In this document: piece after piece, positions 1 through 20,202 of the stretch
Numbering within the stretch: the stretch's first letter is position 1
Layout of the letters: every line of letters starts with the position of its first letter
Assembly: GCA_964455555.1 (NCBI GenBank)
Contig: CAYVXV010000004.1
Location: 7,771 to 71,770, forward strand
Length of the DNA: 64,000 bases
Reading direction: 5' to 3'
DNA from: an uncultured Pseudomonadales bacterium
GTDB taxonomy: Bacteria; Patescibacteriota; Microgenomatia; UBA1400; PJMF01
Program-made: the position numbers and the translations under genes
Notes under the pieces: model-generated
Told to the model about the DNA's origin: nothing
Seen by the model: only the letters and a program-made list of their open reading frames with translations
Database searches by the model: none

Positions 1-1412
1 TCGATCTTCAGGCTATTGATTTTGCCCAGCGCAAAAGCGGACTCAGGCTGATTACAAATTACGCTATGCCATCTGAGTTAGAGCGGGCTATTGCCGAGCA
101 TTACTCGCAAAGCCTCTCCAGCGAGGTTACTGAAGCCTTGGAGCAGACCAGCCAAGTGGTTGAGGCAGAGCTGGAAAAACAGGATCTGTCCGGCTTGGCC
201 GGTGAAACCATCCGCCAGGCTCCGATTACCAAGATTGTCCAGACTGTCCTCTCCTTTGCCATGAAAGCTAGGGCATCTGATATTCATATTGAGCCACAAG
301 AAGGGCGCACTAGAGTCCGCTACAGGATTGATGGTATTTTGCAGGAAAAATTAATCCTGCCCGCTTCGGTTCAAGAGGCCGTAGTATCCAGAATTAAAAT
401 TCTCTCAGGGCTCAAAATTGACGAAAAGCGCGTCCCTCAGGACGGCCGTTTTACCTTTATTGCCGGAGAGGAAGAAGTTGACCTGCGTATTTCTACCTTG
501 CCCACTATCCATGGCGAAAAAGTGGTGATGCGGCTGCTCAAGAAAAATGATTCAGTCCCCTCCCTGCCAGATCTGGGTCTTAGAGGGCTGGCTTTGAGGA
601 ATGTTGAAGATTCAATTAAAGTCCCTCACGGCATTATTCTGGTGACCGGGCCTACCGGCTCAGGAAAAACTACTACGCTCTACTCGATCCTGGACAAGAT
701 TAATACGCCCAAAGTCAACATTGTGACGCTGGAGGATCCCGTCGAGTACCAGATGAAAGGCATTAATCAGGTTCAAATCAACCCTCAGGCAGGCCTGACC
801 TTTGCTTCAGGGTTGAGGTCTTTTCTCCGGCAGGACCCCAACATCATCATGGTGGGTGAGGTCCGTGACGGCGAGACGTCTGATCTGGCAATCCAAGCTT
901 CACTGACAGGCCATTTGGTTTTCTCAACTTTGCATACTTCCTCAGCCGCCGGTGCCCTGCCCCGTCTGCTGGACATGGGTGCCGAGCCCTTCCTGTTGGC
1001 TTCATCAATGACTTGTGTAATGGCGCAGCGGGTTGTCCGGCTGATCAACCCTGATTACAAAGAAGAATATAAACCTGATCCTGAGGTACTGAAGGATATT
1101 AAAAATGTTTTAGGCGGATTTTTTGACAATTGGCTCAAACAGAACAATAAGACAGAAGCAGACGTGACTTTGTTTAGAGCCAAAGAAGACCGACCTCAGA
1201 CAGAGCCCGAGTACAAAGGTAGGATTGGCATCTTTGAAGTAATGAAAATCACAGAAGAAATTGGTACACTGATTTTAACCAGAAAACCAGCTGTAGAAAT
1301 TGAAGAGCTTGGGATTAAGAGTGGCATGCTGCTGATGAAGCAGGACGGCTATATCAAGGCACTTGAAGGCATAACAACAATAGAGGAGGTTTTGAGGGTA
1401 GCTCAAATCTAG
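1..1412 (+). CDS. pilB: Type IV pilus assembly/extension ATPase PilB (GspE family). 5' end truncated by window edge: the reading frame is open back to nt 3.
   Basis: Walker A GPTGSGKTTT; GspE-type Asp/His boxes; T4P ATPase architecture; followed by pilT and pilC. The frame upstream of the annotated ATG at 66 has no stop. Confidence 0.88.
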   Translation, partial: DLQAIDFAQRKSGLRLITNYAMPSELERAIAEHYSQSLSSEVTEALEQTSQVVEAELEKQDLSGLAGETIRQAPITKIVQTVLSFAMKARASDIHIEPQEGRTRVRYRIDGILQEKLILPASVQEAVVSRIKILSGLKIDEKRVPQDGRFTFIAGEEEVDLRISTLPTIHGEKVVMRLLKKNDSVPSLPDLGLRGLALRNVEDSIKVPHGIILVTGPTGSGKTTTLYSILDKINTPKVNIVTLEDPVEYQMKGINQVQINPQAGLTFASGLRSFLRQDPNIIMVGEVRDGETSDLAIQASLTGHLVFSTLHTSSAAGALPRLLDMGAEPFLLASSMTCVMAQRVVRLINPDYKEEYKPDPEVLKDIKNVLGGFFDNWLKQNNKTEADVTLFRAKEDRPQTEPEYKGRIGIFEVMKITEEIGTLILTRKPAVEIEELGIKSGMLLMKQDGYIKALEGITTIEEVLRVAQI

Positions 1413-1416
1413 GAGG

Positions 1417-2481
1417 TTGAGAATGAATATTCATGATGTTTTAGACAAACTTAATGAGTTGCAGGGATCTGATATCCATATTCTGGCCGGTGCCCCGCTA
1501 ACCCTGAGAGTAAATGGCGAGCTACTTGCTATGGATGGTTCTCCTGTTCTAGCACCGCAGGATACCGAAGCCCTAATTAATCCCCTGTTGACCCAAGAGC
1601 AAAAAGACTACATAAAAGTTAATAAAGAACTGGATCTTGGTTATCAGTATAAGGATATTGGCCGCTTCAGGATTAATGTTTACCACACTCAAGGCGCAAT
1701 GGCAGCTGCCCTGAGGTTGATTCCCAGTAGGATCAGGACACTTGACGAACTGCAGATGCCGGAGGTTTTTCATACTTTTGCTAAATATAAGCAAGGTTTG
1801 GTGCTTCTGACCGGTCCTACAGGCGAAGGCAAGTCCACCACCCTAGCCGCCATTATTGATGAAATCAACAAAGAACGCGCGGTTCATGTGGTCACGATTG
1901 AAGACCCGATTGAGTTTGTCTACAAACCGGTTAAGAGTATTATTTCCCAGCGGGAAGTTAATCATGATACCCATGGTTGGGATATTGCCCTCAAGTCAGT
2001 TTTGCGTGAGGACCCGGATGTCGTGTTGATTGGTGAGATGCGCGATTATGAGACTATTGCTTCTGCTATCACCATTGCAGAAACCGGCCACTTGGTTTTT
2101 GCTACTCTCCATACTGCTACAGCAGCCCAGACGATTGACCGGATTATTGACGTCTTTCCTTCTCATCAACAAGGACAAATCCGCCAGCAATTGGCGGCCA
2201 CCCTTAAAGTTGTAGCTTCGCAGCGGCTGCTTCCGACTACAGACGGCGGGCGGATTGCTGGTTTGGAAGTGATGATTGCCAAACCTTCCATCCGCAACTT
2301 AATCCGTGAAAGCAAGACTCATCAGATAGATAATGTTATCCAGACTTCGGCAGATGAACAGATGATGCTCTTTGAAACCCACCTGTACACCTTGGTGCAG
2401 CGCGGGACGATCACCAATGAAACGGCTAAAAACTTTGCCTTTAGAAGAGATGAAATTAATCGGTTAATGGGTAGCAGTTGA
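1417..2481 (+). CDS. pilT: Type IV pilus retraction ATPase PilT
   Basis: 354 aa; Walker A GPTGEGKSTT; PilT-like length; sits between pilB and pilC. RBS AGGAGG lies 6 nt upstream. Confidence 0.88.
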   Translation: MRMNIHDVLDKLNELQGSDIHILAGAPLTLRVNGELLAMDGSPVLAPQDTEALINPLLTQEQKDYIKVNKELDLGYQYKDIGRFRINVYHTQGAMAAALRLIPSRIRTLDELQMPEVFHTFAKYKQGLVLLTGPTGEGKSTTLAAIIDEINKERAVHVVTIEDPIEFVYKPVKSIISQREVNHDTHGWDIALKSVLREDPDVVLIGEMRDYETIASAITIAETGHLVFATLHTATAAQTIDRIIDVFPSHQQGQIRQQLAATLKVVASQRLLPTTDGGRIAGLEVMIAKPSIRNLIRESKTHQIDNVIQTSADEQMMLFETHLYTLVQRGTITNETAKNFAFRRDEINRLMGSS

Positions 2482-3683
2482 TGCCATATTTTAAATACAA
2501 AGTCAAAAATCAGTATAGCGACACCGTTTCAGGCAAGGTTGAAGCTGTCACAATTGAAGCAGCAGCAGCTGAGCTTTCCTCGCGCGGGCTGCTGGTTATT
2601 AATCTTCAGCCGCTATCAGATGACTCCTTTTCTGTCCTCAAGGGTGTCCTGATGGGTGTTAAGCAGGATGACATTGTTAACTTAACGCGTCAGTTAGCCA
2701 CTATGATTACTGCCGGCCTGCCCCTAGCCGGAGGCTTGTCGATCCTTGTACGCCAGAGCAAGGCCGAACTTTCCAGGTTGGTAGCCCAGATACTCCAGGA
2801 TGTTGAAGGCGGAACCTCTTTTAGCCAAGCCTTGGCCAAGCACCCCGACATTTTTTCCCGTCTTTATATTCAGCTAGTCAATGCCGGTGAGACTGGTGGT
2901 GTGCTGGACGAAGTGCTACAGCGGTTGGCAGACAACATGGAGAAATCCAAGGAATTTAAAGCCAAGACCAAGGGTGCAATGATTTATCCGATTATTGTGG
3001 TGCTGGCAATGGTGGCTGTAGGTTTTATTATGATGATTTTTGTTATTCCCAAGCTGACTGAAATGTACAAGGACTTCGATGCAGAGCTGCCAATGGCTAC
3101 CAGAGTGCTAATCGGCACCTCCAACTTTGTGACCCAATTCTGGTATATTTTTCTGATTGTTATTGTGGCCGGTGTTTATGGTCTTAAAAGATGGTACAAG
3201 ACTGAAAAGGGCGAGTTGGCGATTGATGGCCTAATTCTCAAACTGCCGATTATTGGGGTGCTGCGCCAGAAAATTATCCTGACAGAATTTGCCCGGACGT
3301 TGTCTCTGCTGCTTGGGGCGGGAGTTTCTTTGCTGCAGGCTTTAGAAATCGTTAATGAAGGCATAACTAATGTGGTTTACCGCAACGCTTTTAAGGAAGT
3401 TACCAACCAAGTTGAAAAAGGCATTTCCCTCTCAGAAGCCATGAGCCACTACGATATTTTCCCGCCTATCCTTTTCCAAATGATGAGTGTTGGTGAGGAA
3501 ACGGGCAAACTCGATGAAGTCTTGCTGAAAATGTCCACCTATTTCGAGCAGGAAAGTGAGCAAGCGGTCAAGAACTTAACCACTGCTATGGAGCCGATGA
3601 TTATGATTGTGCTGGGTGTAGGCGTAGGGGCGATGGTGATTGCTATAATTATGCCGATCTACAACTTGACCAGCCAATTTTAG
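2478..3683 (+). CDS. pilC: Type IV pilus platform protein PilC (GspF family)
   Basis: 401 aa; two GspF repeats each with TM helices; 4-nt overlap with pilT (translational coupling). Confidence 0.85.
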   Translation: MMPYFKYKVKNQYSDTVSGKVEAVTIEAAAAELSSRGLLVINLQPLSDDSFSVLKGVLMGVKQDDIVNLTRQLATMITAGLPLAGGLSILVRQSKAELSRLVAQILQDVEGGTSFSQALAKHPDIFSRLYIQLVNAGETGGVLDEVLQRLADNMEKSKEFKAKTKGAMIYPIIVVLAMVAVGFIMMIFVIPKLTEMYKDFDAELPMATRVLIGTSNFVTQFWYIFLIVIVAGVYGLKRWYKTEKGELAIDGLILKLPIIGVLRQKIILTEFARTLSLLLGAGVSLLQALEIVNEGITNVVYRNAFKEVTNQVEKGISLSEAMSHYDIFPPILFQMMSVGEETGKLDEVLLKMSTYFEQESEQAVKNLTTAMEPMIMIVLGVGVGAMVIAIIMPIYNLTSQF

Positions 3684-3795
3684 AAAAAGGCTGCCCAATC
3701 GCTCTGCACTAGGGGTTTACCACTTGCGGAGCCTAGAGATTTTAGTATAAATTAGTGTTACAGCCCTTTTTCGGCTATGAGCCTGTAATAATAGT

Positions 3796-4491
3796 GTGAG
3801 GAAACATATGAACCTGTCCAAGTCTTTTCTTCAAATCCTTGCGAAAGTGAGGCAGCATAACCAAAGTGCTGGATTTACAATGATTGAGCTCTTGATCGTG
3901 ATTGCCATTCTCGGAATTTTGGCGGTAGCGGTCCTGTCTGCCATTAATCCTATTGAGCAAATTAACCGTGGTCGGGATACCGGTTCAAGGTCAGATGCTG
4001 AGCAGCTTTTAAGCGCTGTGGACCGTTTCCACGCTTTCCAGGGTTACTATCCTTGGCAGACCGGGGTCAGTGATGTGAGCAATATCGAGGTTAACCCTTG
4101 GGTTCGGCTGACTAATGTTGCTGCCCTGGCTGATGCAAACGGTTGTAACATGCTGGAAAAACTCAGCTCTTTACCCAACACCAACGCCACCTGTACTACG
4201 GCTGCAAACGAGCTTAAAGGCAATTATGTGGATCGGGTCACCTCCAGTTCGTACAATAATCTGTACGTCTACCATGGCACAGGGCTAAGTGATTCCACCT
4301 ATGTCTGCTTCGCCCCTCAGTCCGATGCCTTCAAGCAGGAGGCCTTTGATAGACTAGACACAAACAGTGACGGCAATGTGGATGCTTCAGACAACATCCC
4401 AGCTGATTATCCGGCTGATGCTATAGATAATCCTACCTCAGGAAGTGACATCAACTGCGGTCCTGACGGCTACTGTGTCTGCTTGCCATAG
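3796..4491 (+). CDS. pilA: Type IV (major) pilin with class III signal peptide
   Basis: Prepilin cleavage motif QSAG/FTMIELLIVIAILGIL with Glu at +5; C-terminal Cys pairs; strong intrinsic terminator directly downstream, typical of a highly expressed major pilin. Confidence 0.75.
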   Translation: MRKHMNLSKSFLQILAKVRQHNQSAGFTMIELLIVIAILGILAVAVLSAINPIEQINRGRDTGSRSDAEQLLSAVDRFHAFQGYYPWQTGVSDVSNIEVNPWVRLTNVAALADANGCNMLEKLSSLPNTNATCTTAANELKGNYVDRVTSSSYNNLYVYHGTGLSDSTYVCFAPQSDAFKQEAFDRLDTNSDGNVDASDNIPADYPADAIDNPTSGSDINCGPDGYCVCLP

Positions 4492-4513
4492 CAAATTAAA
4501 AGTAGAAATTTAA

Positions 4514-4541
4514 CCCCCGCTCCGGCGGGGGTTTTTGTTTT
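4514..4541 (+). terminator. Rho-independent terminator after the major pilin gene
   Basis: CCCCCGC-tccg-GCGGGGG stem-loop followed by TTTTTGTTTT. Confidence 0.8.
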
Positions 4542-4612
4542 GCCAATTCTCTAGCGCCTCTCTGCTCTACCGACTTTCCCTCAGCCGACTTATCCTGTAG
4601 TATCATCTTAGT

Positions 4613-5431
4613 ATGATCACAGGCTGGTTTTTGTTCGGCGCATTGTTTCTTTTTGTTTTAGGGGCTGTCTTTGGCAGTTTTCTGAGTGTGGTAATCCTCA
4701 GGAGCATGCGCGGTGAGTCTTGGCTGGGCGGCTCTTCCAAATGTGACGAGTGCGGCGAGCCGATCCACTGGTATGACAACATTCCCCTGCTCTCCTTTCT
4801 TCTGCTCCGCGGCCGTTGCCGCAAATGCGCCAAGCCGATTCATCCCGTTCACTTTGTAGTGGAATTGCTGACCGGCGTGCTGTTTGTTTGGTGGTACTCC
4901 GGCTTTTTCCTTTTTTTCCAGCTGGCTGAGCAGCCTTTCCAAATTATCCAGCCGCTTTTCTGGCTGCTGGTGGCAGTGGTTTTGCTGGTTATCTTTTTTA
5001 CCGATCTCCTTTATATGATTATTCCCGACCAGGCTGTGGCGCTGCTTTTGGTGTTGGTTGTTGGCTACCGCCTGGCTCTTGTGATGGCCGGAATAATGCA
5101 GGTTGGAGACCTGGTGAACACGGTCCTGGCAACCGGTGTGGCTACCGCCGCTTTTCTGCTGCTGTTTTTTGCCACAAAACAACGGGGCTTTGGCTTTGGT
5201 GATGTAAAACTGATACTGCCGCTCGGGCTACTCCTAGGTTGGCCAAATACTTTGGTGGCGGTATTCTTATCTTTTATTTTTGGCGCCCTGGCTGGCATTG
5301 CCCTGCTTTTAGCAGGCAAACGCAAGCTGAAACAGCCTATCCCCTTTGGGCCATTCCTGATCATTTCTGGGTTTATCAGCCTTATCTGGGGTGAGGCGCT
5401 TTTCCGCTGGTATCTGAGCTTCATTTTTTAG
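4613..5431 (+). CDS. pilD: Prepilin peptidase / N-methyltransferase PilD (A24 family)
   Basis: Multi-TM protein; cytoplasmic tetra-Cys motif CDECGEP...CRKCAKPI; catalytic-Asp region FGFGDVKL. Confidence 0.85.
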   Translation: MITGWFLFGALFLFVLGAVFGSFLSVVILRSMRGESWLGGSSKCDECGEPIHWYDNIPLLSFLLLRGRCRKCAKPIHPVHFVVELLTGVLFVWWYSGFFLFFQLAEQPFQIIQPLFWLLVAVVLLVIFFTDLLYMIIPDQAVALLLVLVVGYRLALVMAGIMQVGDLVNTVLATGVATAAFLLLFFATKQRGFGFGDVKLILPLGLLLGWPNTLVAVFLSFIFGALAGIALLLAGKRKLKQPIPFGPFLIISGFISLIWGEALFRWYLSFIF

Positions 5432-5499: not shown

Positions 5500-6471
5500 A
5501 TGCGCATTATCAAGTACCTGCTCACTTTCTTCGCGCTGATCCTCCTTTTAGGCGTAGGTAGTTTTTTTATTGCCAGGGAAGTGTTTTTATTCTGGGGTTC
5601 AACAACTGTAATCGAGTCGCTCAAGGAGCTAAAGTCGGCTTCGATTAGCAATACATATGAACTGGAATGCGCCCGCCGGGGAGGCGGAACTGCTCCTGTT
5701 TCTTCCGGCAGTAATGTGGTAACTCAGCTCAGGTTCCTTTCTTCAACAGAATATGTCCTTGAAGCAGTCTGCGATCAGTTTCCCCAAAGCCCAATCTTGA
5801 TAAGGCAGCAGACCTTGCCAATGTTTATTACCAAAGTGCCGGGCACCTCTGGATTCATCTGGCGGGAATTTCATCAGTCCGGCATCGAACTGGCGGTTTT
5901 TTCTGACTTAGCAAGTTCACTAAAAGACTATTTTAAGTTTGACCCGGTTGCGTTGGTTAAAACTAAGGGAATAATTGTTGATGACCGGGTGATTGTGAGC
6001 GGAGGCTCGGTTGGCCTTCCTCTCTCTGAGGGCCCTTCAACTACCTGTGAAGGCTATGGTTATTTTTGCTGTGACCAGAATGCCCAAATGGGTTCTGGCA
6101 GCCAGGTGGTGGGTTTAGACAGCTGCCCGGACCGCTGTTATTCTGCCTGCGTGGCTAGACCGATGGTGCTATCTTTTAACAGCAACCCATTTTTTGATGT
6201 AAAAACCCGCGTGGTGACCATTCAGGACGGCGAGACGGTGGAGTTCCGCTATGTGGCTAGCAGCGATGCCCAGGAATTGCAGGCAACCATTGATTTTGGC
6301 GACGGCAAACAGGCTTATATTGTGGGTACTCAAGGAAGTTCAGTCCACAACTACAATTGCGACCGGGCAAAGTGCAGCTTCAGCGCCAGGATTCTTTTGC
6401 GGGATTTATGGGGAGTTGAATCTATTCCTACGCCAATCTCGAAGATTGGTGTAGAGGTTATTAAGCAATAA
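5500..6471 (+). CDS. Hypothetical Cys-rich membrane-anchored protein encoded inside the pilus locus
   Basis: N-terminal TM helix; 323 aa; many Cys (CEGYGYFCCDQ..CPDRCYSAC); no recognisable family; sits between pilD and the minor pilin array. Confidence 0.45.
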   Translation: MRIIKYLLTFFALILLLGVGSFFIAREVFLFWGSTTVIESLKELKSASISNTYELECARRGGGTAPVSSGSNVVTQLRFLSSTEYVLEAVCDQFPQSPILIRQQTLPMFITKVPGTSGFIWREFHQSGIELAVFSDLASSLKDYFKFDPVALVKTKGIIVDDRVIVSGGSVGLPLSEGPSTTCEGYGYFCCDQNAQMGSGSQVVGLDSCPDRCYSACVARPMVLSFNSNPFFDVKTRVVTIQDGETVEFRYVASSDAQELQATIDFGDGKQAYIVGTQGSSVHNYNCDRAKCSFSARILLRDLWGVESIPTPISKIGVEVIKQ

Positions 6472-6519: not shown

Positions 6520-6960
6520 ATGAAAAGTTTAATGAGAACAAATAGCCAGCGGGGTTTTACATTGCTCGAACTCTTGGTGGTTATTTCAATCATCGGTATT
6601 TTGGTGACTATGGGCGTAGTGGCCTACTCTACTGCTCAGGTTAAAGGCCGTGATGCCCGTCGCCGGGCGGATATGCAGTCTATTCAGGATGCCTATGAGC
6701 AATACTATGCCAACGAGGGTGGTTATCTGGCCAGCGGGTTTGGCGGCACTCCTTGTACTGATGGCGGCCAACTTAGCGATTATATTGGCGTGTTTCCTCA
6801 CGACCCAAAACCAGGCACTAATTACACCTGCTCTGGAGATGCAGTTAGCTATTGTGCTTGTGCTGATGTTGAGGATGATAATGGCAACAGCTCAAACGCT
6901 TCCTGCACTTGGGTTCCGGGGGGAACGGGGGCTTATTATTGCGTAGGCAACTTACAGTAA
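6520..6960 (+). CDS. Minor type IV pilin-like protein
   Basis: Class III signal SQRG/FTLLELLVVISIIGIL, Glu+5; 146 aa; C-terminal Cys. Confidence 0.7.
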   Translation: MKSLMRTNSQRGFTLLELLVVISIIGILVTMGVVAYSTAQVKGRDARRRADMQSIQDAYEQYYANEGGYLASGFGGTPCTDGGQLSDYIGVFPHDPKPGTNYTCSGDAVSYCACADVEDDNGNSSNASCTWVPGGTGAYYCVGNLQ

Positions 6961-6975: not shown

Positions 6976-7419
6976 ATGAAAAAAACATCAGGATTTACGT
7001 TTATAGAACTGCTGGTTTCGGCTACGATTATTATCATTATTTCGGCAATTGGTGTTGTTAGCTTCACTTCGACAGGCAGATCGGCCCGCGACGGCAAACG
7101 CAAGGCAGATTTGGAAACAATCCGCCAAGCATTAGTACTCTTAAGGTCGGATGCGGGGGCTTATCCGAGTGGTGGTTATAGCGACATGATAACCTCGCTG
7201 GTTTCAGGCGGTTACTTAAGCCAGCCTACTCCAGCTGAACCCAGGGTGGCCACACAGGGTGAGTATGCTTATTCCACCAATGGCTCTGGGACCAACTTCT
7301 GCTTGTGCGCCAACACCGAGGACGATGCCAAAAATGCCAATGCTGGATCGACGGGTGCGGGAGGTGTCTGCTCTTTTGGCGCTGCCAACAAAACCCATTA
7401 TTGTGTTTCAAATCCTTAA
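6976..7419 (+). CDS. Minor type IV pilin-like protein
   Basis: KTSG/FTFIELLVSATIIIII, Glu+5; 147 aa. Confidence 0.7.
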   Translation: MKKTSGFTFIELLVSATIIIIISAIGVVSFTSTGRSARDGKRKADLETIRQALVLLRSDAGAYPSGGYSDMITSLVSGGYLSQPTPAEPRVATQGEYAYSTNGSGTNFCLCANTEDDAKNANAGSTGAGGVCSFGAANKTHYCVSNP

Positions 7420-7422: not shown

Positions 7423-7941
7423 ATGTATAAGCTGCCCGTCCGCACCTCTGGCTTTACCTTAATAGAACTCTTAGTAGTGGTAGCTATTTTGTTGATTATT
7501 ACCGGTGGCAGCATCGCCGCTATGATTAGGTTTAATGACAAGCAAAGAGTGCAGTTGGGCATTCAGGAGATTCAGTCATTTATCCAAGTGGCCCAAGCTA
7601 AAGCCAGGGTAAGGGAGATTCCCGGCGGTACAACCTGCAATTCCCTGCAGGGTTACCGGGTACAGAAAAGCGGTTCAACTTTGCAGATACACTCCAACTG
7701 CAACAATGGTGCCGGCAGTGTTTACACTTTAAGCCAGACCCACTTTATCCCTGTCAACCTTACGGTTACGCCTGACAGCTTTTCGGTAGAATACAGGACT
7801 CTTTTTGACGGGGCTGAACTGAGAGTGAACAACACGGTAGTTGCAGATTTTGAGGTCCGGGCAGTCAATTCAACTGGAACTTTTGCTTTTAGTTTTGAAA
7901 TTGATGGGAATGGCATTATGCATAAGCCGGTGCAGGAATAA
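7423..7941 (+). CDS. Minor type IV pilin-like protein
   Basis: RTSG/FTLIELLVVVAILLII, Glu+5; 172 aa. Confidence 0.7.
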   Translation: MYKLPVRTSGFTLIELLVVVAILLIITGGSIAAMIRFNDKQRVQLGIQEIQSFIQVAQAKARVREIPGGTTCNSLQGYRVQKSGSTLQIHSNCNNGAGSVYTLSQTHFIPVNLTVTPDSFSVEYRTLFDGAELRVNNTVVADFEVRAVNSTGTFAFSFEIDGNGIMHKPVQE

Positions 7942-8435
7942 TGATTATGACAACAAATTTTAAGCAAATCCTAAAAAGCCAAGATGGACAAACTATCCTT
8001 GAAGTTTTGTTGGCTGCAATGATTGTTGGCCTGGTGGTTACTGCTGCTGCTGTTGGCTTGACCTACTCTATAAAAAATAACGCAGAGGTCAGATATCGCG
8101 AGCTGGCTACTGCCCTAGCCCAAGAGCCGATAGAGGCTTTCCGCCGCGAGCGCGACAAGCAACACTGGACGCAATTTCATGCTGCTGTTACCAGCGCAGA
8201 GGTTTATTGTTTTGGTTCGTCAATTCCCAGCGACATGTCTGGTTTTACTACTCGAGCCAACGATGCAACCTGCGATTCTTTTGAAAATGCCAAAACAGAA
8301 TTCAGGCGTTCTGTTGCTGCTGCTAAACCAAATGATAACACTGTTGAGTTGACAGTTACGGTGACTTGGAATGTCGGCGATGATAAAAACGAGCGCTCCA
8401 TCACAGTGAATCATTGGCTTAAAAATTGGAATTAG
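7941..8435 (+). CDS. Minor type IV pilin-like protein (atypical +1 residue Q)
   Basis: SQDG/QTILEVLLAAMIVGLVV, Glu+5; overlaps the previous gene by 1 nt. Confidence 0.6.
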   Translation: MIMTTNFKQILKSQDGQTILEVLLAAMIVGLVVTAAAVGLTYSIKNNAEVRYRELATALAQEPIEAFRRERDKQHWTQFHAAVTSAEVYCFGSSIPSDMSGFTTRANDATCDSFENAKTEFRRSVAAAKPNDNTVELTVTVTWNVGDDKNERSITVNHWLKNWN

Positions 8436-8992
8436 TTTCTAAGTTGAATATTCGAAGTAAATTTTTCCAATGGACCTATGGCGTTGCCTGAGTCGCTAGA
8501 AGCTTGCATAGTAAAAGAGACTGTCACAAAGATTTTGCTGCCAGCTGCTGTGCACCTAAACAAAGCCGGTGAATCGGCTATCACGGATGAAGAAGTAATT
8601 CTGTTTAGGTCATGCAAAATTACGCTGCTAAATACCAGCCGGAAAGAATTTCGGTTTCCGCTGGGGTCTTCCACCATAAGATAGTTTGAGCCGGCTAGGC
8701 ACTCATCTAAATTAACCACCATTTTTGCATTACGGATATAGTAGTCCATTGTTTTTAATGCTTGATTTCCTTCGGTGGAAATCCGTTTTCTAAAAGTCAT
8801 GCTGGAATTGCCGATAATAAAGGTTAAGAACATGGCTGAAACTGTCAGAAACAAGATGGTTACCAGTCCTGTGGCTATGAGCATTTCGATCAGTGAAAAG
8901 CCGTTTTTCACGCGGCTGGAGGCTGCAGAAATAAGGCTTCTGAAGCGCTGTGATGCAGCTGCGGAATGGTGGTTAGGCTTGCACTTAATCAT
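8432..8992 (-). CDS. Pilin-like protein co-transcribed with the giant surface protein
   Basis: VKNG/FSLIEMLIATGLVTILFL class III signal, Glu+5. Its start overlaps the end of the 1388-aa gene by 8 nt, and its 3' end overlaps the convergent plus-strand minor pilin by 4 nt. Confidence 0.6.
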   Translation of the reverse strand: MIKCKPNHHSAAASQRFRSLISAASSRVKNGFSLIEMLIATGLVTILFLTVSAMFLTFIIGNSSMTFRKRISTEGNQALKTMDYYIRNAKMVVNLDECLAGSNYLMVEDPSGNRNSFRLVFSSVILHDLNRITSSSVIADSPALFRCTAAGSKIFVTVSFTMQASSDSGNAIGPLEKFTSNIQLRN

Positions 8993-11900: not shown

Positions 11901-13151
11901 AAATTGGCAACAGTCGTTGCTCCAACAAATGGACTTTCCGGTGCTTGAGTCACATGGTGTAGTACTGCCGCAGACACCTGGGTTGTCATGGCAGTTGGTG
12001 CCGCAGTTGGCATCGTGACAGGCTGGCGGTGGTGTGGCTCCCGGGGCACACTCCTGTTCTATCCAAGCCAGGCATGATTGATAGGTGGAGCGGCAAGCGT
12101 TGATACAGCCACCGCAATAAGTGGTGCCGGCTGGGCAGCCACCACCTCCACCACCGCTTGGGGGAGGCTGTTCCCATGAGCAGGTGTTAAAGAGTGGGTC
12201 TGGGCAAAAGCCGCTGCCACAGGTTGCGCCTTGAGCGTAGCAAGCGTCGGGAGAAGAGGAGCCGCCAGAGCAGGTAGACTGGGAGTAGCCTGCAGTGGTG
12301 TTACCATCGCAGATGGCTACTGATTGACAGGTGCCTGAACTACAACCGACCGTGGTCCCTGGTGAAGGACACCAACTGCCATCGGGACATCTATATGAGT
12401 ATGAGATATAAACACATGCCCATTTTCCACTACAGGCTGCATAGGCACTAGGTACAGTAAACATGCTTTTAAAATTTTGTATATATGTGTTAAAAAATGA
12501 TGATAGTCCTACCGGCTCAAGAGTAAAAAGTAAGCCCTCTGCATCTTGAAACTCAACCACTTTTTGCACTGAGGCAGTAATCATTTCATTATCTGTTAGA
12601 TTGCCACCGGCGCTTAAAAGCAAGATCTCATTGATGCTAAAAGTCCATACCATGGTCACTGTTTCTAGTGACTCACCTTCAAGCAGTTTGGGAAAGTCCT
12701 CCGACGAATAATAAATGCTGTAAACTAATGCCTGTGATTCGTTATCATAGTCTGCAGTGAAGCCACTTACGAACCAGTTGTTACTTGAACTCTGATGCAT
12801 AAGCTGAACATCTGGAGATTTTTCCCTATCTAAATAGCGAAAATAGATTTCTTTTGGAGTAATTCTTTGTGTACCTTCAAAGAGTAGAAATTCTGGCTCC
12901 TCTCTATATCCATGCTCATCAATCATTTTTGTTAACAGACTTTGATTCAATGAGTCGGATTGGATTTTGTAGAGAGGAAAATCAGAATTAATATGAATAT
13001 CTATTGAACCACTTTTAGTCTTATAGGTAAATCGTTCACCCTCTAAAGAGATTTGAGCAAGTTGTTGTTTCCAGATTAAAAATCCAGCAACTATTGAGGC
13101 GGCTAAAATAATAAAAATGACAACTAATCTGAGCAATTGAGGTTTCTGCAC
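8985..13151 (-). CDS. Giant (1388 aa) membrane-anchored Cys/Gly/Thr/Asn-rich surface protein; candidate pilus-associated adhesin
   Basis: N-terminal signal-anchor LLRLVVIFIILAASIVAGFLIW; central region extremely Cys-rich with a GGGGGG tract; low-complexity T/S/N/G repeats; C-terminal region with beta-helix-like NI/NN repeats; operonic with a pilin-like gene. Confidence 0.55.
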   Translation of the reverse strand: MQKPQLLRLVVIFIILAASIVAGFLIWKQQLAQISLEGERFTYKTKSGSIDIHINSDFPLYKIQSDSLNQSLLTKMIDEHGYREEPEFLLFEGTQRITPKEIYFRYLDREKSPDVQLMHQSSSNNWFVSGFTADYDNESQALVYSIYYSSEDFPKLLEGESLETVTMVWTFSINEILLLSAGGNLTDNEMITASVQKVVEFQDAEGLLFTLEPVGLSSFFNTYIQNFKSMFTVPSAYAACSGKWACVYISYSYRCPDGSWCPSPGTTVGCSSGTCQSVAICDGNTTAGYSQSTCSGGSSSPDACYAQGATCGSGFCPDPLFNTCSWEQPPPSGGGGGGCPAGTTYCGGCINACRSTYQSCLAWIEQECAPGATPPPACHDANCGTNCHDNPGVCGSTTPCDSSTGKSICWSNDCCQFAPEGLYNCGNQGVVISSPACGYYGDLNVRVPDTSFAYQASITVVKKGTSWSKTFNLSPEGTEGPAQHSFSGNINLASIVNDPALRAVDADGKGTFIAQANLWRPGDDGGWRENRCASPFYISPDQPAPPPLCTRESGTFYWPRQEDASRHILRINYDDSVDGGWRPGTNYPPSGTDSRWDHYRWIPGTMGYCWGAQCFGEFSTATLDAGKQWAPGQYNGYSVQIVDPFSDQPLCTGSYGPFQCGQKKSCTVSTTSTNYQQNAQIPVTVNGSIEPGLSAGRVTQLYLKRQNNTRIIPTPAGSTEVYDSAGNIYYYRFTGCTTNPATGLCNSTINMPGLATTGTYNVFCQMPGDVDQCSGNPNCTYEGGTTSCTGWTSCSNADNKTINVTCSPTCTNACGQPDGCGGTCANTDSGVPTTPTISFSSPSRVGTNVNMTGDADQRVQINWTSGGTRTNNYEVAIYPQTVNPGLTSGSFNCATNQYCTVVSASTLSQLYTPSATHGFRMRVSVRAVNNTCSLQPTPWRTEDFNLTGNITGNFVLDANNTCTGNAQGLVNPGLQSGSTLNATNSVIGSLGNMSSGVSGQTYGLNNYPYAPSSWTRNIILTLGINNPNPADTLVCAPCNRGSSLTNCTRSNNITSPGSTNFYLQRYNLANDPWWQVTNGLFYAGTGFGTNSIPDTSLCTGSACTPYFGINASGVSDVATAGMPLTGASSVSSSSRWTQRQTNPTNFPERRGRNLNFGAAPVENYTVMSTRYDLSSLTKIPANTDHSQQTQLTNLGSQYSINFTEADGKTTRIFATEGDLTISPNASQRWQIPNNEKYIIFVDGSLTIRDDDGVSGTTPDNERLIRVASGGFLAFIVRDNININQNVGHRITASNNPRTQANIEGVYVANNIIIQSDNNSSTTDLKFIGAGSFVGWNSVSLNRDFDDSELGRAFHNTSPTEVFIYRPDFLKNAPTSILQSDVVWQQTND

Positions 13152-13197: not shown

Positions 13198-15459
13198 TTA
13201 TTTTATTGCTCTGAGTTGTCCATCTAATTTTCGTTCTAACTGCCCCTGAATGGTGTTCTCATACCAAGCACCCTCATCTCGTGCTTCCTCTGCTGGCCAA
13301 GCTCCATCATTTAATCCAGGAATTTCAGCATATTCGCGAAGGGCTTGCTGAGCCTGTGGGGAAAAAGATAAGGATTGAAGAGTTAATAGAGGAAGGAATG
13401 GAAAGACATCACTCCTTGCAATTCCTGGCTGTTGAGATGGAAGTCTTACCACTATGAAGTATTTTTCGTTCTGCTGATCTATAACAGGAGTAAAGGCGAT
13501 GACACTAGAAGAGCCTCCTTGTTTGAGCCACAGGTTAATCTCAGCACCTTCTGCTTGGATTTTAATAGTATTGGGTCTCGCTCGATCGTAGGTGGTTCCA
13601 ATATCAACATAAATAGGGATAACTTCCTGAACAGGCAGTTCAACCTCCACATAGTTTCCCGTTTCACTGTCATAGCCGTAAACCATCCGAGTTGGCGTCT
13701 GACCTTGTTCTTTAAGATTTTTAACTTCCTCCATGTAATCACGAGCTTCTTGAATAAATTCATTAATATCTTTTTGCTTGAGATCCTCATCATTAGAGCG
13801 AACAACTCCGAGATAGTTCATTCCAATAACAAAATCTCGAAGATTTTGAGGTTCAAGTTTTCCAAGACTAGTTTTAGTATACTGAAGCATTTCTAAATCT
13901 AAGCCGCTAACCTCTGCATCATTAAACGATGACAACAATCGAATATCCACGCCAGTAAATTCAGGAGTTAACTCCACTTCATCTCCATTTTCATTGACGT
14001 AAACAAACGGATAAGGCCTACTGATTGCATCTAAAATTTCTTTGGCACTCATACCTTCAATGATTTCCCTGACTTCAACAAAGGTTGTTTCACCTGTTTC
14101 CGGCACCTCCGTTGCCGGTGGTGTAGTTGCTTCAGGTGTTGGTGGAACTGGAGAAGGTGTTTCTTCTGCTGCCGGAGTTACCGTTGGTGCAACCTGCAGC
14201 TGTTCGTCTTCGACCACATCCCGCCACTGGCCGTACTCATCAACCACTTGCACAACTACTCCATCCTTAATCCGTACTGACCTGCCCAGGGCACTTTCTA
14301 CTGCTACCCTATCTGCTTCTCCCGGAGTCAATGCCATAGCTTCGCCCTCATGCCCTGGTGTATTGGATATCCTCCAGGTGTAATCTCGGCCATAGGTTTG
14401 ATCGCCGGCGGTGATAATTGTGCCCTCAGCAACACTGACAAGATTTACAATGGTGCCATTGGCTAGGACAAACTGCTCTACGCGCACTGAAGGGCTGGTG
14501 CCCTCGGGTGACAAATAGACAATGCCTAGTTCCCCCAATTGGCGCAGGGTTTCCTCAGCGCTCTCTTGAGCCTGCTGCAGCTCTTCCCCTTCCAGGTTTT
14601 GGTTGATTATTTCAAAATCCGGTAGGTCGGTAAATCGCTGCCAGCCTTCGGGGGGCTGTTCACCGCCGCCTTCCGAAGTTGGTTCTAACTCAGGCGTTGT
14701 AGCTGGTGGTGCCTCTGTGGTTACGCCAATTGTGGGTTGGTTGTTTTCTGGCTCTACTGCCCTGCCATCGGAGCAAGCGCCGAGGGCAATAGTGGCACCA
14801 AGCAGGAGGGCTGAGATGAGCAGCCTAGCCCTTCTTAATCCCAATTTCGCTTTATTTTTAGCAGGATCCTCGTCTTGAGATTCACTCTGCTCTCCTTCAG
14901 CTTCTTCCGCTGCTGCTGCTCTAATTGCCTCCGGAGTTGTGCCCGACTCTGTAGCGGCAAACTCTATGGTCCTGATGAAAACTACACTATCAGGCAAACC
15001 CTCCGCCTGAAGTCTTTCAATCAGCCCCATTTCCTCTAGTGTGTCTATATACCCGCGAACAAAATCTTCAACCGGCAGGTGATCCTCAATTGATTGCGCT
15101 TCTAGTTTTGCAACTGCTTCTTCTAGTTTTGCATAGGCTTCGACAGTCATCAGTGGAAGCCTAATGCCTCTTTTTGCTTCAGCATACTCTGCTGTAAGCC
15201 GGATATCTGTTTCTTTGTCGCCCTCTTTATCAAGCTCAGCTATCTGCTCACCAGGTTGTAGGCTTTCCATTGCTGCAGCAAAAGGGCTAAGGTTGCCCAT
15301 GGTCTCACCCAAGTTCATTGGCTGAGGATCAACATAGCCGGGTTCTGGTCTGGCTCCGCTCAATGCTTCACGGGCACCTAAAAATCTTGGAGTCCTGGCT
15401 TCACTGTCTCCTCTTGCTTCTATTGAGAGGGGTGGATTTTGCTCTTTGGTTTCTGCCAT
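13198..15459 (-). CDS. Hypothetical exported/membrane protein with acidic N-terminal region and Pro/Thr/Glu-rich linkers
   Basis: 753-aa ORF; an internal RRARLLISALLLGATIALGAC segment looks like a lipoprotein signal with lipobox LGAC; PT-rich linkers (PTVTPAAEETPSPVPPTPEATTPPATEVPETG). Confidence 0.4.
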   Translation of the reverse strand: MAETKEQNPPLSIEARGDSEARTPRFLGAREALSGARPEPGYVDPQPMNLGETMGNLSPFAAAMESLQPGEQIAELDKEGDKETDIRLTAEYAEAKRGIRLPLMTVEAYAKLEEAVAKLEAQSIEDHLPVEDFVRGYIDTLEEMGLIERLQAEGLPDSVVFIRTIEFAATESGTTPEAIRAAAAEEAEGEQSESQDEDPAKNKAKLGLRRARLLISALLLGATIALGACSDGRAVEPENNQPTIGVTTEAPPATTPELEPTSEGGGEQPPEGWQRFTDLPDFEIINQNLEGEELQQAQESAEETLRQLGELGIVYLSPEGTSPSVRVEQFVLANGTIVNLVSVAEGTIITAGDQTYGRDYTWRISNTPGHEGEAMALTPGEADRVAVESALGRSVRIKDGVVVQVVDEYGQWRDVVEDEQLQVAPTVTPAAEETPSPVPPTPEATTPPATEVPETGETTFVEVREIIEGMSAKEILDAISRPYPFVYVNENGDEVELTPEFTGVDIRLLSSFNDAEVSGLDLEMLQYTKTSLGKLEPQNLRDFVIGMNYLGVVRSNDEDLKQKDINEFIQEARDYMEEVKNLKEQGQTPTRMVYGYDSETGNYVEVELPVQEVIPIYVDIGTTYDRARPNTIKIQAEGAEINLWLKQGGSSSVIAFTPVIDQQNEKYFIVVRLPSQQPGIARSDVFPFLPLLTLQSLSFSPQAQQALREYAEIPGLNDGAWPAEEARDEGAWYENTIQGQLERKLDGQLRAIK

Positions 15460-16969: not shown

Positions 16970-17791
16970 ATGCATTCAATTTTTAAATGGCAGTTATCTG
17001 GGCGGGAAAATTCCTCTGAGAGCGGTGTTGTGGCTGCAGCCGTAGCTTTGGTAGCGGTAGTCCTGCTGACCATTGGGCTTTCTCAAGGTGCTCAGGTAGC
17101 ACAAGACCTGTTTATCTCCGACCAAGAAGCTGAGTCAACTAGAGTTTTCAACGCGGCAGAAAGTGGCATTGAGGATGCCCTGTCGCAGGAGGCTCTATTT
17201 GCCCCCGATGCCGGCACTCAAACTATTAACCCAAACGTATCTGAGGGCATTGATAGCGAAGTTACTGTTACACCTCAAAATAGCCTGACTACGCGGGTGG
17301 TTCAAGGAGACACGGCGTCTGTCAAAGTCAATGGCGCTGGCAGCCTGCAAATAGACTGGTCAGATTTTGGTGTAACCGGCTGCAATGCCGCCGCTTTATT
17401 AATCTCTATTTATAAAACCACGGGCGGTGCAACAGATGTCAGATACCTATCAGCCGCTCCAACGGGCTGTTCGCTGGCGGCAAGAGTTGAGGATGGCTTT
17501 AATACAGCCAATGTAACTGCTTTGGCTTCTGGAAATTTTGCTTACCGCTATAGCTTAAGCACAGTGGCAGGAGATGAATTGGTGTTGATTAAACCTCTTT
17601 ACCAAGACACCAGCATTTCAGTTTCAGGCAGTTCATCAATTCAAGCGCATCTGATTAGGTCTGAATCAGAAACTTCAGTAGCTGCCGGTGATGATAGCCA
17701 GCAGCATCTAATCCAGGCATTGCGAACAATGCCCCGTGCTCCTAGGTTTTTAGAGTACGCGGTGTACTCAAACGGTTCTGTACAACATTAA
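16970..17791 (+). CDS. Hypothetical membrane-anchored protein, PilX-like, immediately upstream of pilMNO
   Basis: N-terminal hydrophobic helix SGVVAAAVALVAVVLLTIGLS resembling the PilX_N pattern; 273 aa; Ser/Thr-rich extracellular part. Confidence 0.35.
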   Translation: MHSIFKWQLSGRENSSESGVVAAAVALVAVVLLTIGLSQGAQVAQDLFISDQEAESTRVFNAAESGIEDALSQEALFAPDAGTQTINPNVSEGIDSEVTVTPQNSLTTRVVQGDTASVKVNGAGSLQIDWSDFGVTGCNAAALLISIYKTTGGATDVRYLSAAPTGCSLAARVEDGFNTANVTALASGNFAYRYSLSTVAGDELVLIKPLYQDTSISVSGSSSIQAHLIRSESETSVAAGDDSQQHLIQALRTMPRAPRFLEYAVYSNGSVQH

Positions 17792-17818
17792 TAGTAGTAA
17801 GTAAACTGAATACCAACT

Positions 17819-18826
17819 ATGTCTGCCCTAGCCCTAGATATCGGTACTTATTCCATTAAAGCTTTAAGTGGCAAGCCCGGAAGAAATGTAACAGTTGAAA
17901 AAGTAGCCGAGGTTTTCAACAGCACCGGCTATTCCATGCCTTCAGATGATGCTTCGCTGGATAAGTTGGCTTCTTTGGTTGAAGCAGTGCTTAATGATTA
18001 TGGTCTTCCCCGCTCGGATGTTAGGTTAAGCCTGCCGGAATCTGTCATTTCCAGCAAAGTAATTGAAATTCCGCCGCTGTCAGATGCTGAACTAGCCTCT
18101 GCTATCAATTGGCAGGCGGAACAGCACATTCCTATTCCACCGGAAGAATTAGCCCTAGAGTACCAAGTTTTATACCGCCCGCAGAAAAAAGACAAAACCC
18201 CAATGCGTGTTTTACTGATTGGAGCCAGGAAACAGATGGTTGAGCGCTATGTTCAGGTTTTTCATGCCCTCGGCATTGAGCCCAGCCTAATTGAAACTCA
18301 GGGCATTGCCTTACTGAGGTCGCTTCAGTTTGATAAGACAGATCCCAATACACTAGTGGTAAATATGGGCGCCAGTACTATGGATCTAATCATGGTTTAT
18401 GCCGGTGAGTTTCAGTTTGTGATTTCTCATATGAACGGCGGCCAACTGCTTACACGCGCTCTTGAGCAAAGTGTAGGTTTGGATTCCCAGCAGGCTGAGC
18501 AGTACAAGCGCGCTTATGGACTTGATGCCTCTCAATTCCAAGGCAAAGTCAGTTCTGCCCTTCTGCCAGCAGTAAATATGCTAGTGGCTGAGCTTAAAAA
18601 ATCTGTTCAGTTTTTTGTTAACCAGCATCCGCAAGAAACAGTCCAGCGGGTGGTGTTGTCCGGCGGCACGGCTTCATTGCCGGGGTTGGTTCAGCATATT
18701 ACCAAAGAATTGGGCGCAGAGGTACTGGTGGCTGCTCCCTTTACTGGTATCGAAGGGCAAATTCCTGAAAACGTAAATCACGCCAGTATGGCAATTTGCA
18801 TGGGTCTTTTAATGAGAGAGCTCTAA
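17819..18826 (+). CDS. pilM: Type IV pilus assembly protein PilM (actin-like ATPase fold)
   Basis: N-terminus LALDIGTYSIKAL typical of PilM/FtsA-like proteins; 335 aa; followed by pilN and pilO. Confidence 0.85.
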   Translation: MSALALDIGTYSIKALSGKPGRNVTVEKVAEVFNSTGYSMPSDDASLDKLASLVEAVLNDYGLPRSDVRLSLPESVISSKVIEIPPLSDAELASAINWQAEQHIPIPPEELALEYQVLYRPQKKDKTPMRVLLIGARKQMVERYVQVFHALGIEPSLIETQGIALLRSLQFDKTDPNTLVVNMGASTMDLIMVYAGEFQFVISHMNGGQLLTRALEQSVGLDSQQAEQYKRAYGLDASQFQGKVSSALLPAVNMLVAELKKSVQFFVNQHPQETVQRVVLSGGTASLPGLVQHITKELGAEVLVAAPFTGIEGQIPENVNHASMAICMGLLMREL

Positions 18827-18829
18827 GAT

Positions 18830-19414
18830 ATGTCTACATCTATTAACTTTGTCAGCACTACCCGCAAGGAGCTGAGCAAGGTTCAACAGCAAGATCGGGT
18901 TTTCTTTCGCTATGCGCTTATGGCCGTAGCGGTGGTTTTTGCGTTTTTTCTTATAGCCCTGGCCGGCCGGCTCTTTTTTATGTTCCAGCTAAGAAGCGTA
19001 GAGACCAGGCAGGAGCAAACTAGGAATGCCATCATCAGCCACGAACAGCTGGAAGCCGACTATACGGTTTTTGTTCACAAACTCAAAGCGCTTGGCCAGC
19101 TTTTTGGCAAACGCAAAGAAAAGCAGGAGGCTTTGATTTTCTTTAGCGAAGTCTTTGGCCCCGATGTCGAAGTCAGCGGCATTGATTACACCAGCAGCAG
19201 GAGTGATCAGCTGATATTCTCCATTAGGGCGCCAAGTATTTTTGTTATTGAATCTGTTTTTGAAATTCTCAAGCGTGATGATGTGGTTTCCAGATACAAA
19301 GAGATTTCTAAAGACAACCTTAGGCGTGGCAATGACGGTTCTTACAACGCTCATTTAACGGTGACTTTCAAAGACGACTCTAATCCGTTTGCACAGGAAG
19401 TGACAGCGCAATGA
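18830..19414 (+). CDS. pilN: PilN-like inner-membrane pilus assembly protein
   Basis: Short cytoplasmic N-terminus, single TM (YALMAVAVVFAFFLIALAG), coiled-coil periplasmic part; position after pilM. Confidence 0.55.
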   Translation: MSTSINFVSTTRKELSKVQQQDRVFFRYALMAVAVVFAFFLIALAGRLFFMFQLRSVETRQEQTRNAIISHEQLEADYTVFVHKLKALGQLFGKRKEKQEALIFFSEVFGPDVEVSGIDYTSSRSDQLIFSIRAPSIFVIESVFEILKRDDVVSRYKEISKDNLRRGNDGSYNAHLTVTFKDDSNPFAQEVTAQ

Positions 19415-20202
19415 CACAAGCCAAAGACAAAAAACCATTCAATTTTTGGATATTTTGGAGGACCAGAAGCTTCTTGGTTTTTACCATTGGCATTGGCATA
19501 GGTGCTTTGTTATTGATCACTATGGGTGTATTGCCTCAGCTGCAGGCCATGGGTGATTTGCGCACAGATGTGAGCAGAAAGCGCCCGCAGTTGGAAAAAA
19601 TTGAACAGAAGCTGGCGCAGTTGGAAAATGTACGCTACACGCCGGAATTTTCTCAGGTTGATGTGATCAGCCGGGCGCTGCCGTCCAGAAAACCGCTCTT
19701 AGAACTGCTCACCAATTTAAATCTTGTTGCGGTTACAAAAGAAATTGAAATAGTCGAGTTTCAAATCAGTCCGGGAATTGTCGCTACTGATAGTGCTGAA
19801 CTGGCCGCTGGTGCCAGGAGGACGCCACTGCAGCAAGAAATTGCCGGTATTGACTCACTTGAACTAGCTGTTTCAGTTAAGGGACCCAGAGAAAATCTTC
19901 ATGAATTTCTTAACGAGATTGAGAAGATCTCCCCTTTTACTACCATTGTGAAGCTCTCAATTTCCTCAAGAAAAGAAGGTGAAACCGATGCCCGCGCAGA
20001 ACTGACGCTCAACACTTTTTTCTTTACCCAAGCCATTAAAACCACAGTCGATGCACCGCTGCCGGTGTTGGCAGATCAGGACCTTTTTGTTTTGAGCGAA
20101 CTGAGTTCATTTGAAATAAATGAATTGCCAGAACAGGGCGATATCACCGGCGGTGGCCTTGAAGACCTCTTTGGCGTCGACCCGATCGAGTTTTTAAACT
20201 AA
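19411..20202 (+). CDS. pilO: PilO-like pilus assembly protein
   Basis: Single TM followed by a coiled coil (QLEKIEQKLAQLEN); 4-nt overlap with pilN; order M-N-O. Confidence 0.5.
   Translation: MTQAKDKKPFNFWIFWRTRSFLVFTIGIGIGALLLITMGVLPQLQAMGDLRTDVSRKRPQLEKIEQKLAQLENVRYTPEFSQVDVISRALPSRKPLLELLTNLNLVAVTKEIEIVEFQISPGIVATDSAELAAGARRTPLQQEIAGIDSLELAVSVKGPRENLHEFLNEIEKISPFTTIVKLSISSRKEGETDARAELTLNTFFFTQAIKTTVDAPLPVLADQDLFVLSELSSFEINELPEQGDITGGGLEDLFGVDPIEFLN

Follow-up and report, generated by a model that had tools for sequence, protein, structure and literature searches.

The first 20,202 nucleotides of the 64,000-nucleotide stretch of contig CAYVXV010000004.1 analyzed here (the window) carry a gene cluster for a type IV pilus (T4P), and the evidence supports a type IVa (T4aP)-like, retractile pilus machine of a monoderm cell that operates without a secretin and is served by one prepilin peptidase. 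The open reading frames (ORFs) of the window were listed, translated, and scanned against Pfam and NCBIfam profiles with the curated family cut-offs as thresholds, and related loci and contigs (numbered L002, L010, and so on) were compared using tblastn searches with all window proteins together with gene tables. The plus strand of the cluster begins with the extension ATPase gene pilB (1..1412; T2SSE E = 4e-123), the frame of which is open from base 3 to the window edge with the 5′ end lying off the window and the C-terminal 469 amino acids lying inside it. The retraction ATPase gene pilT follows (1417..2481, plus strand) and scores 436 bits on the TIGR01420 PilT/PilU model (cut-off 319) over model positions 2-342 of 343; the true start is likely the ATG at 1423, and the protein contains the sequence SIRNLIRE, which we take to be the AIRNLIRE motif of PilT. 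The platform protein gene pilC (2478..3683, plus strand) shares 4 nt with the 3′ end of pilT and encodes two T2SSF domains (PF00482, E = 2e-67). [quoted passage not shown] The prepilin peptidase gene pilD (4613..5431, plus strand) matches A24_N_bact (E = 2e-28) and Peptidase_A24 (E = 2e-15), with CxxC...CxxC and GFGDVK motifs in the protein, which is probably also the N-methyltransferase. Across the cluster the PilT, PilM, PilO, and N_methyl profiles pass their cut-offs and T2SSE, T2SSF, and A24 are matched. The order pilB-pilT-pilC-major pilin-terminator-pilD-unknown gene-four minor pilins, given in a preliminary description of the same DNA, is borne out by the ORF and profile scans, with every gene recovered in its place.

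Full-length PilB orthologues from the related loci are 580-620 amino acids long with an MshEN-like N-terminal domain and score 537-544 bits on the GspE model and, aligned end to end, 521-533 bits on the TIGR02538 PilB model (cut-off 676), both below cut-off. Membership of the superfamily is clear, and PilB and GspE are not separable by the PilB sequence alone; the T4P assignment is drawn from PilT, PilM, and the gene context. The N-terminal domain, encoded in the region that lies off the window, is seen in the pilB orthologues of L005 (7149-8927), L007 (7024-8886), and L016, with a Pfam MshEN match in L016, NfrB C-terminal-like matches with E ~1e-9 to 1e-10, and a match of 21.7 bits, below cut-off, to an MshE-related cyclic di-GMP motif in L007; its presence hints at a possible cyclic di-GMP control of pilus extension. 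A tetracysteine (zinc) motif is typical of the C-terminal part of PilB/GspE. In a comparison with L002-L014, all four cysteines are absent from the window PilB, which reads RLINPDYKE...AKEDRPQTEPE in this area, and the motif is lost in PilB of the Microgenomates-like clade; L010 and L011, which are Patescibacteria at a greater distance, keep it as CxxC...CxxC.

The major prepilin (3809..4491, plus strand; N_methyl E = 2e-8) has a 22-amino acid leader ending at the cleavage site G/FTMIE and a mature length of 205 amino acids, of which the first ~75 hardly change from relative to relative, in contrast to a variable C-terminal head. An intrinsic terminator (4512..4543, plus strand) follows this single gene, composed of a 9-bp stem (4512-4533) with seven G-C pairs and a T-tail, and is the top-listed terminator-like site within positions 1-20000. 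Folding of positions 4495-4550 gives a free energy of -24.4 kcal/mol with a z-score of -4.6 against shuffled sequences, and a hairpin with a T-run occupies the same position with a different sequence in five relatives (L002, L003, L006, L010, and L016). The strong terminator noted directly behind this gene in the preliminary description is therefore present and conserved in position, and together with the nearly invariant N terminus it fits the role of major subunit for this pilin. In the head of this pilin, positions 4357-4392 encode an EF-hand-like loop of 12 residues, DTNSDGNVDASD; it is not conserved in orthologous pilins and was rejected as a conserved calcium site.

A group of minor prepilins is located downstream of pilD. 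Minor prepilin 1 (mp1; 6520..6960, plus strand) has the site G/FTLLE, an N_methyl match with E = 5e-9, and a GspG-like N terminus (TIGR01710, 34 bits, below cut-off), and mp2 (6976..7419, plus strand) has the site G/FTFIE with N_methyl E = 3e-5 and is likewise GspG-like (T2SSG E = 0.0017). The next two genes are mp3 (7423..7941, plus strand; G/FTLIE; N_methyl E = 2e-6), which resembles GspH/FimU (TIGR01708 GspH, 35 bits, below cut-off), and mp4 (7941..8435, plus strand; G/QTILE), which resembles PilV/GspI (29 bits, below cut-off, in a full-length match to TIGR02523 PilV) and reaches 17.3 bits on N_methyl, below the cut-off of 21.2. The sixth canonical prepilin, mp5 (8432..8992), lies on the minus strand and has a 31-amino acid leader, the site G/FSLIE, and an N_methyl match of 23.2 bits (E = 5e-5; cut-off 21.2), with 17 bits, below cut-off, on PRK10557. 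Six class III signals with Gly at -1 and Glu at +5 are thus found by motif scan and Pfam, and N_methyl is above cut-off in five of the six. The six prepilins counted previously are obtained only when the minus-strand mp5 is included, which the earlier gene order did not list, and the consensus G/(F or Q)T(L/M/F)IE proposed for them holds for Glu+5 and is otherwise approximate, as the individual sites show. The genes mp4 and mp5 converge with their 3′ ends overlapping by 4 nt (8432-8435), so that a terminator would have no space between these transcription units. For a public contig identical to the window (Logan SRR9016294; L001 and L024), automatic gene calling does not give mp5 and has in its place a 110-amino acid plus-strand ORF (window 8775-9107).

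Between pilD and mp1 a 323-amino acid accessory protein is encoded (5500..6471, plus strand). It starts with a transmembrane (TM) helix, has cysteines that are invariant among relatives, and ends in a PKD-like sequence that reads DFGDG...H.Y.C; its sole Pfam match is a weak one to PKD_4 (E = 0.003). The gene is kept in close relatives only, occupying the same position in seven aligned relatives (L002, L003, L005, L006, L007, L009, and L016) at 32-65% identity and being absent from L010 and L011.

Further along the plus strand lie four genes for the remaining parts of the machine. A non-canonical pilin of the PilX_N type with 273 amino acids (16970..17791) does not have the Gly-1/Glu+5 site and is assigned through the PilX_N matches of its homologues. 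The window protein itself has no Pfam match even at E <= 10, and 16 of 20 members of its family match PilX_N (PF14341; best E = 6e-7), two homologues being named "Tfp pilus assembly protein PilX" in the Joint Genome Institute (JGI) annotation. The AlphaFold2 model, with a mean predicted local distance difference test (pLDDT) score of 80.7, is pilin-like, consisting of a 55-residue N-terminal helix and a beta-sandwich head. A Foldseek search of the PDB with this model returned generic jelly-roll and cupin folds only, with TM-scores <= 0.33 and no GspK or PilX match. The earlier label of PilX-like is justified by the homologue matches, the JGI naming, and the model, with the structure search adding just the generic folds. 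The gene lies directly upstream of pilM in L019, L020, L011, and two JGI contigs, and the protein is probably a GspK/PilX-like tip subunit. The actin-like cytoplasmic alignment protein PilM (17819..18826, plus strand) matches PilM_2 (E = 5e-43) and scores 168 bits on TIGR01175 (cut-off 133), and PilO (19411..20202, plus strand) scores 27.5 bits on Pfam PilO (cut-off 22) and 23.8 bits on T2SSM_b (cut-off 21.7), with the orthologue in L019 reaching 32.9 bits. The 194-amino acid protein encoded between the two (18830..19414, plus strand) has a short N terminus with the sequence (S/R)INFV, one TM helix, and ~140 extracytoplasmic residues, an arrangement kept in L019 and L020; the sequence (S/R)INFV resembles the PilM-binding INLLP motif. 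From its place between pilM and pilO and from this topology we infer that the protein is PilN.

The minus strand between the minor prepilins and these genes carries, in addition to mp5, two large genes. The first gene of the minus-strand unit (13198..15459) encodes a 753-amino acid protein with an acidic N-terminal region, an internal TM segment with a lipobox-like LGAC, and an extracytoplasmic C terminus. No significant Pfam match was found for it; similarity to the equivalent 631-amino acid gene of L016 is weak (E = 5e-8), and L019, L020, L021, and L010 have large genes without domain matches in the corresponding place. The second gene (8985..13151) encodes a giant Cys-rich surface protein of 1388 amino acids that has an N-terminal TM helix, a variable middle rich in Cys, Gly, and Thr, and a conserved C-terminal module (~925-1388). 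The ATG of mp5 lies 3-8 nt upstream of the giant stop codon, the two reading frames overlapping in the window. An mp5 orthologue adjoins a giant-type gene in L002, L006, L007, L016, L019, L020, L021, and two JGI contigs, and in L009 and L010 both are within one cluster without being direct neighbors.

The preliminary description divided the pilus genes into two loci. The arrangement in relatives is better described as one conserved neighborhood of ~20 kb, of which the conserved minus-strand giant and mp5 in the middle had been missed. The order pilB-pilT-pilC-pilin-pilD-323-amino acid protein-mp1 to mp4, with mp5 and the giant gene convergent to it, is found in the same seven loci and two JGI contigs in which mp5 adjoins the giant-type gene, and L003 ends before the giant. 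After mp5, the giant, and the large protein come one or two small housekeeping-type genes, then the PilX-like gene, pilM, the PilN-like gene, and pilO, and then genes for KH, S16, RNase III, ACP, NusB, and RecG proteins, the same order as in the window. At least 10 related loci keep a giant-type gene within the T4P cluster in either orientation, the more distant L010 having giant-type genes after the pilins on the same strand. As this arrangement recurs in relatives, the 7.3-kb spacer belongs to the cluster, and as the minor pilins of L011 run directly into the PilX-like gene and pilM, the two "loci" are one system. Of the small genes between the giant unit and the PilX-like gene in the window (15742-16823), one encodes a CMP/dCMP-type (TadA-like) deaminase and the other a nucleoside 2-deoxyribosyltransferase-like protein; the pair is kept in one JGI contig, and a Nuc_deoxyrib_tr-like gene is in the same place in L020.

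The giant protein has no Pfam family at E <= 0.01 and no PDB sequence match. The search with the full-length protein, in which the candidates were dominated by low-complexity words, found only itself and one relative, and the C-terminal domain alone was used instead. Out of 1.84 billion, 929 cluster representatives match the C-terminal 389 amino acids at E <= 1e-3, and 110 do so at E <= 1e-30. In the listed full-aligning matches the domain is located at the C terminus of proteins of ~140-1519 amino acids, and no Pfam domain covers this region in them. As far as Pfam and the papers cited here go, the family is undescribed. The AlphaFold2 model of residues 925-1388 has a pLDDT of 66 overall and ~80 in the last 220 residues and forms a beta-sandwich followed by short stacked strands resembling a beta-solenoid. 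Foldseek found nothing in the PDB at E < 0.1, the best match being a beta-helix antifreeze protein (E = 0.17), with bactofilin among the weak matches. An identification of the giant as PilY1 (Pfam Neisseria_PilC) was rejected, there being no Pfam or PDB sequence match and the model not being a beta-propeller.

Around 15 loci, set against the 929 representatives, were inspected for an association of the C-domain family with pilus genes. The settings away from pilins are L015 and L017/L018, where the surroundings include ParA, ArdC, DUF2958, Fic, restriction-modification, and AbiE genes, and L022 and L023, where the domain is encoded among glycosyltransferases and housekeeping genes, respectively; in each a TM protein of ~190 amino acids is encoded just upstream of the C-domain gene. 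A fusion of this TM partner with a family member of ~580 amino acids as the origin of the giant is not supported by BLASTP of residues 1-260, which match only the giant N termini in L019 and L020 and not the 190-amino acid proteins. At L015:6404-10022 and L017/L018:4369-10099 a cassette is seen that is composed of a lipoprotein-like protein of ~365 amino acids, a TM protein of 160-200 amino acids, and a Cys-rich protein of ~580 amino acids with the C-domain of the giant; its neighbors also include HerA-like, LexA, and AbiEii genes and no pilins, and these surroundings resemble a mobile element. At 2.37 Mb and 32% G+C, the contig of L015 probably exceeds the size of a typical Patescibacteria genome.

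The class of the system is decided by PilT and PilM, both above their curated cut-offs, with the Tad, VirB11, and ComGA models far lower or below cut-off, which supports the previous choice of T4aP over Tad/Flp or a type II secretion system (T2SS). The TadA family model TIGR03819 reaches 45.6 bits (cut-off 373) and the pilins are of the GFxxxE type, not Flp. For the ComG systems, ComGA gives 257 bits (cut-off 300) and ComGB 158 bits (cut-off 240) in the presence of PilT, PilM, and PilO. The T2SS has a homologous ATPase, platform, peptidase, and pseudopilins, and the window differs from it by PilT and PilM, a host from a phylum described as monoderm, and the lack of any GspC, GspD, or GspL match in the window. 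T2SS uses GspL and has no PilT. A short wall- or periplasm-spanning pseudopilus of the T2SS or competence (Com) kind, for protein export or DNA uptake, nevertheless deserves consideration: the top-scoring models for PilB and PilC are GspE and GspF, slightly above the PilB and PilC models, the pilus proteins give sub-threshold matches of GspG, GspH, and GspM type, the window contains comM, and an enrichment of DNA-uptake genes has been reported for Patescibacteria (PMC11665869). Against it stand the PilT and PilM scores and the ComGA shortfall given above, the lack of GspC/GspD, the fact that Com operons are without PilT and PilMNO, the absence of ComEA and ComEC from the window, and the observations on related Saccharibacteria, on which T4P filaments have been imaged and in which T4P-2 mutants kept full competence (PMC11623550); we regard a pseudopilus as quite unlikely. 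It is slightly less likely still that the two parts of the cluster belong to two different pilus systems with partners elsewhere in the genome. TM7x does have several T4P loci forming two systems (PMC11623550), but the window has exactly one each of pilB, pilT, pilC, pilD, pilM, and pilO, the two parts are complementary, and the 20-kb arrangement recurs in relatives with L011 joining the parts directly. Several observations weigh against a pilus cluster with the composition proposed here: the slight preference of PilB for the GspE model, both scores being below cut-off; the PilN-like protein, for which no match was found in Pfam, NCBIfam, or the PDB with single sequences or a three-sequence profile, leaving the pilM-pilN-pilO series of the preliminary description upheld by profile cut-offs at its two ends and not in its middle; the H/I/J/K roles of the minor pilins, for which the family matches are sub-cut-off; and, for the giant, a C-domain model that by Foldseek against the PDB resembles no known pilus-tip protein and a family that also occurs without a nearby pilin in L015, L017/L018, L022, and L023.

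The giant is a candidate pilus-associated adhesin, a link to the pilus that we infer from gene adjacency alone. The minus-strand unit of the 753-amino acid protein and the giant may instead be an independent surface adhesin or envelope module placed beside the pilus genes and perhaps co-regulated with them, the T4P working without it, and the envelope anchor of the giant would then be either the conserved domain at its C terminus or the TM helix at its N terminus; this explanation is a real possibility that we hold to be the less probable side of the question. The occurrence of the C-domain family, with its constant ~190-amino acid TM partner, in four settings without a nearby prepilin, from which it follows that the domain does not need a pilin partner, the N-terminal TM helix in place of a prepilin signal, and the lack of structural likeness to PilY1 or pilus-tip proteins all favor such a module. 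It is opposed by the giant-type gene staying in the T4P cluster of at least 10 Patescibacteria loci with PilC identity down to 45%, and by the giant mostly abutting the mp5 orthologue with overlapping frames in the window, a coupling of a prepilin to an unrelated adhesin for which there is no obvious reason. A more specific and rather unlikely version of the association with the pilus, which we put forward tentatively, is that the giant C-domain docks on the tip formed by mp5 and the minor pilins with the hypervariable, disulfide-rich N-terminal part binding the target, making this family, in Microgenomates-like Patescibacteria, an exchangeable, pilus-presented module for host recognition and a PilY1 analogue of independent origin.

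Taking the cluster as a whole, we consider it highly probable that it encodes a type IVa-like pilus of a single-membrane, Microgenomates-like Patescibacterium working in the following way. PilD would cleave the six prepilin leaders after the conserved Gly, and PilB, acting on the PilC platform held by PilM, the PilN-like protein, and PilO, would polymerize the abundant major pilin (3809-4491) from a gene insulated by its own terminator, with PilT depolymerizing the filament to give a retractile pilus. The filament would cross the cell wall without a secretin. A low abundance priming or tip complex would probably be formed by mp3 (GspH-like), mp4 (PilV/GspI-like), mp5 (GspJ-like by position), and the PilX_N protein, which is without Glu5 as in GspK, and mp1 and mp2 would be GspG-like accessory pilins. 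The giant would probably be displayed together with this complex, or on it, as the part that varies and binds the target, functionally analogous to PilY1 or to PilX2 of TM7x. Host or surface attachment and twitching are the likely uses of such a pilus. DNA uptake via the pilus is possible and draws no support from the window.

The system is comparable with several that have been described. Gram-positive type IVa pili such as those of Streptococcus sanguinis and Clostridium are built by monoderm cells without a secretin from PilB, PilT, PilC, PilD, PilM, PilN, and PilO with clustered pilins, and have modular pilins in which adhesive domains are fused to true class III-signal pilins. In the large protein of the window, in contrast, the N-terminal TM helix is an ordinary one, and its gene lies beside that of a small prepilin. 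The T4P-1 of TM7x (Nanosynbacter lyticus, Saccharibacteria) belongs to the same phylum-level group and has the same inventory without a secretin, its T4P locus one holding PilB, PilT, PilC, PilM, PilN, PilO, PilD, and five pilins, and two large non-canonical proteins, PilX1 and PilX2, without a PilD site have been proposed as tip proteins or adhesins (PMC11623550). PilX1 has a beta-jelly-roll domain (PMC11623550), comparable with the long N-terminal helix and beta-sandwich head of the window 273-amino acid protein. The window organism is of another class, Microgenomates-like, with pilin sequences not conserved between the two, and its cluster adds the 323-amino acid TM/PKD-like protein and the 1388-amino acid Cys-rich protein with its beta-solenoid-like C-domain, whereas PilX2 of TM7x has a seven-bladed propeller. 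The complete genome of the Microgenomates bacterium Ch65, read by its authors as not Gram-negative, contains one T4P locus and no pilQ, together with ComEC, ComEA, and DprA (PMC7143001). Compared by description, the Ch65 paper reports no PilX_N-type protein, no PilN/PilO, and no giant Cys-rich gene among the pilins (PMC7143001). The priming complex of PilY1 and FimU/PilV/PilW/PilX in diderm T4aP (Myxococcus and Pseudomonas; cited in PMC11623550) likewise has a large non-pilin protein among four or five minor pilins. As in PilY1, the C-terminal domain of the giant is conserved and the N-terminal part varies, and the minor pilins are tentatively GspH/I/J/K-like; the PilY1 C-domain is a beta-propeller, whereas that of the giant is modelled as a beta-sandwich with a beta-solenoid-like part and belongs to a family also found outside pilus loci, and here no secretin is found in the window and the cell is probably without an outer membrane.

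A complete secretin-less T4P cluster is of a kind already described for Patescibacteria, in which T4P are nearly universal and the few cultivated members depend on them for motility and host binding (PMC11623550, PMC11665869); in a Saccharibacterium they are essential (PMC11665869). One more such cluster, found in an uncultured lineage that is Microgenomates-like, is a small addition by itself, and the less ordinary part is the giant next to the minor pilins. The conserved extra content may matter, that is the 323-amino acid TM/PKD-like protein and above all the giant overlapping the start of a minor pilin. If the giant is a pilus-presented adhesin, it would be a concrete candidate for host recognition by uncultured episymbionts with a variable region usable to predict host range, and if it is a tip module, the cassette in mobile-element-like settings would suggest horizontal movement of pilus tip specificity.

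Patescibacteria have been described as monoderm (PMC11665869), and no secretin, ComEA, or ComEC is found among the window ORFs of at least 300 amino acids, the scope being the 64-kb window, nor any secretin domain in the listed related loci. The earlier remark that neither PilQ nor PilP was seen holds to this extent for the secretin and for the window. A comM/YifB homologue (48840-50354), in which the Mg_chelatase, ChlI, and Mg_chelatase_C domains are recognized, is located at a distance of 28 kb from the pilus cluster. The earlier use of comM as a pointer to DNA uptake is not followed here, this being a member of an Mg-chelatase ATPase family at a distance with nothing pilus-specific about it. 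The gene lies directly upstream of and on the same strand as a gene for a secreted CAP-domain protein of the cysteine-rich secretory protein family (48229-50354 for the pair), and neither is linked to the pilus cluster.

Several of the Patescibacteria-like MAGs (L003, L004, L005, L009, L011, and P0193) are labelled "uncultured Pseudomonadales" or "Gammaproteobacteria," which looks like a placeholder or wrong taxonomy. Rfam and tRNA scans found three tRNAs only in the window, with none in 1-20202. The rest of the window is composed of housekeeping genes, including those for PBP1, FemAB, BacA, RecG, UvrD, Lon, ClpB, tRNA synthetases, GAPDH, and TIM.

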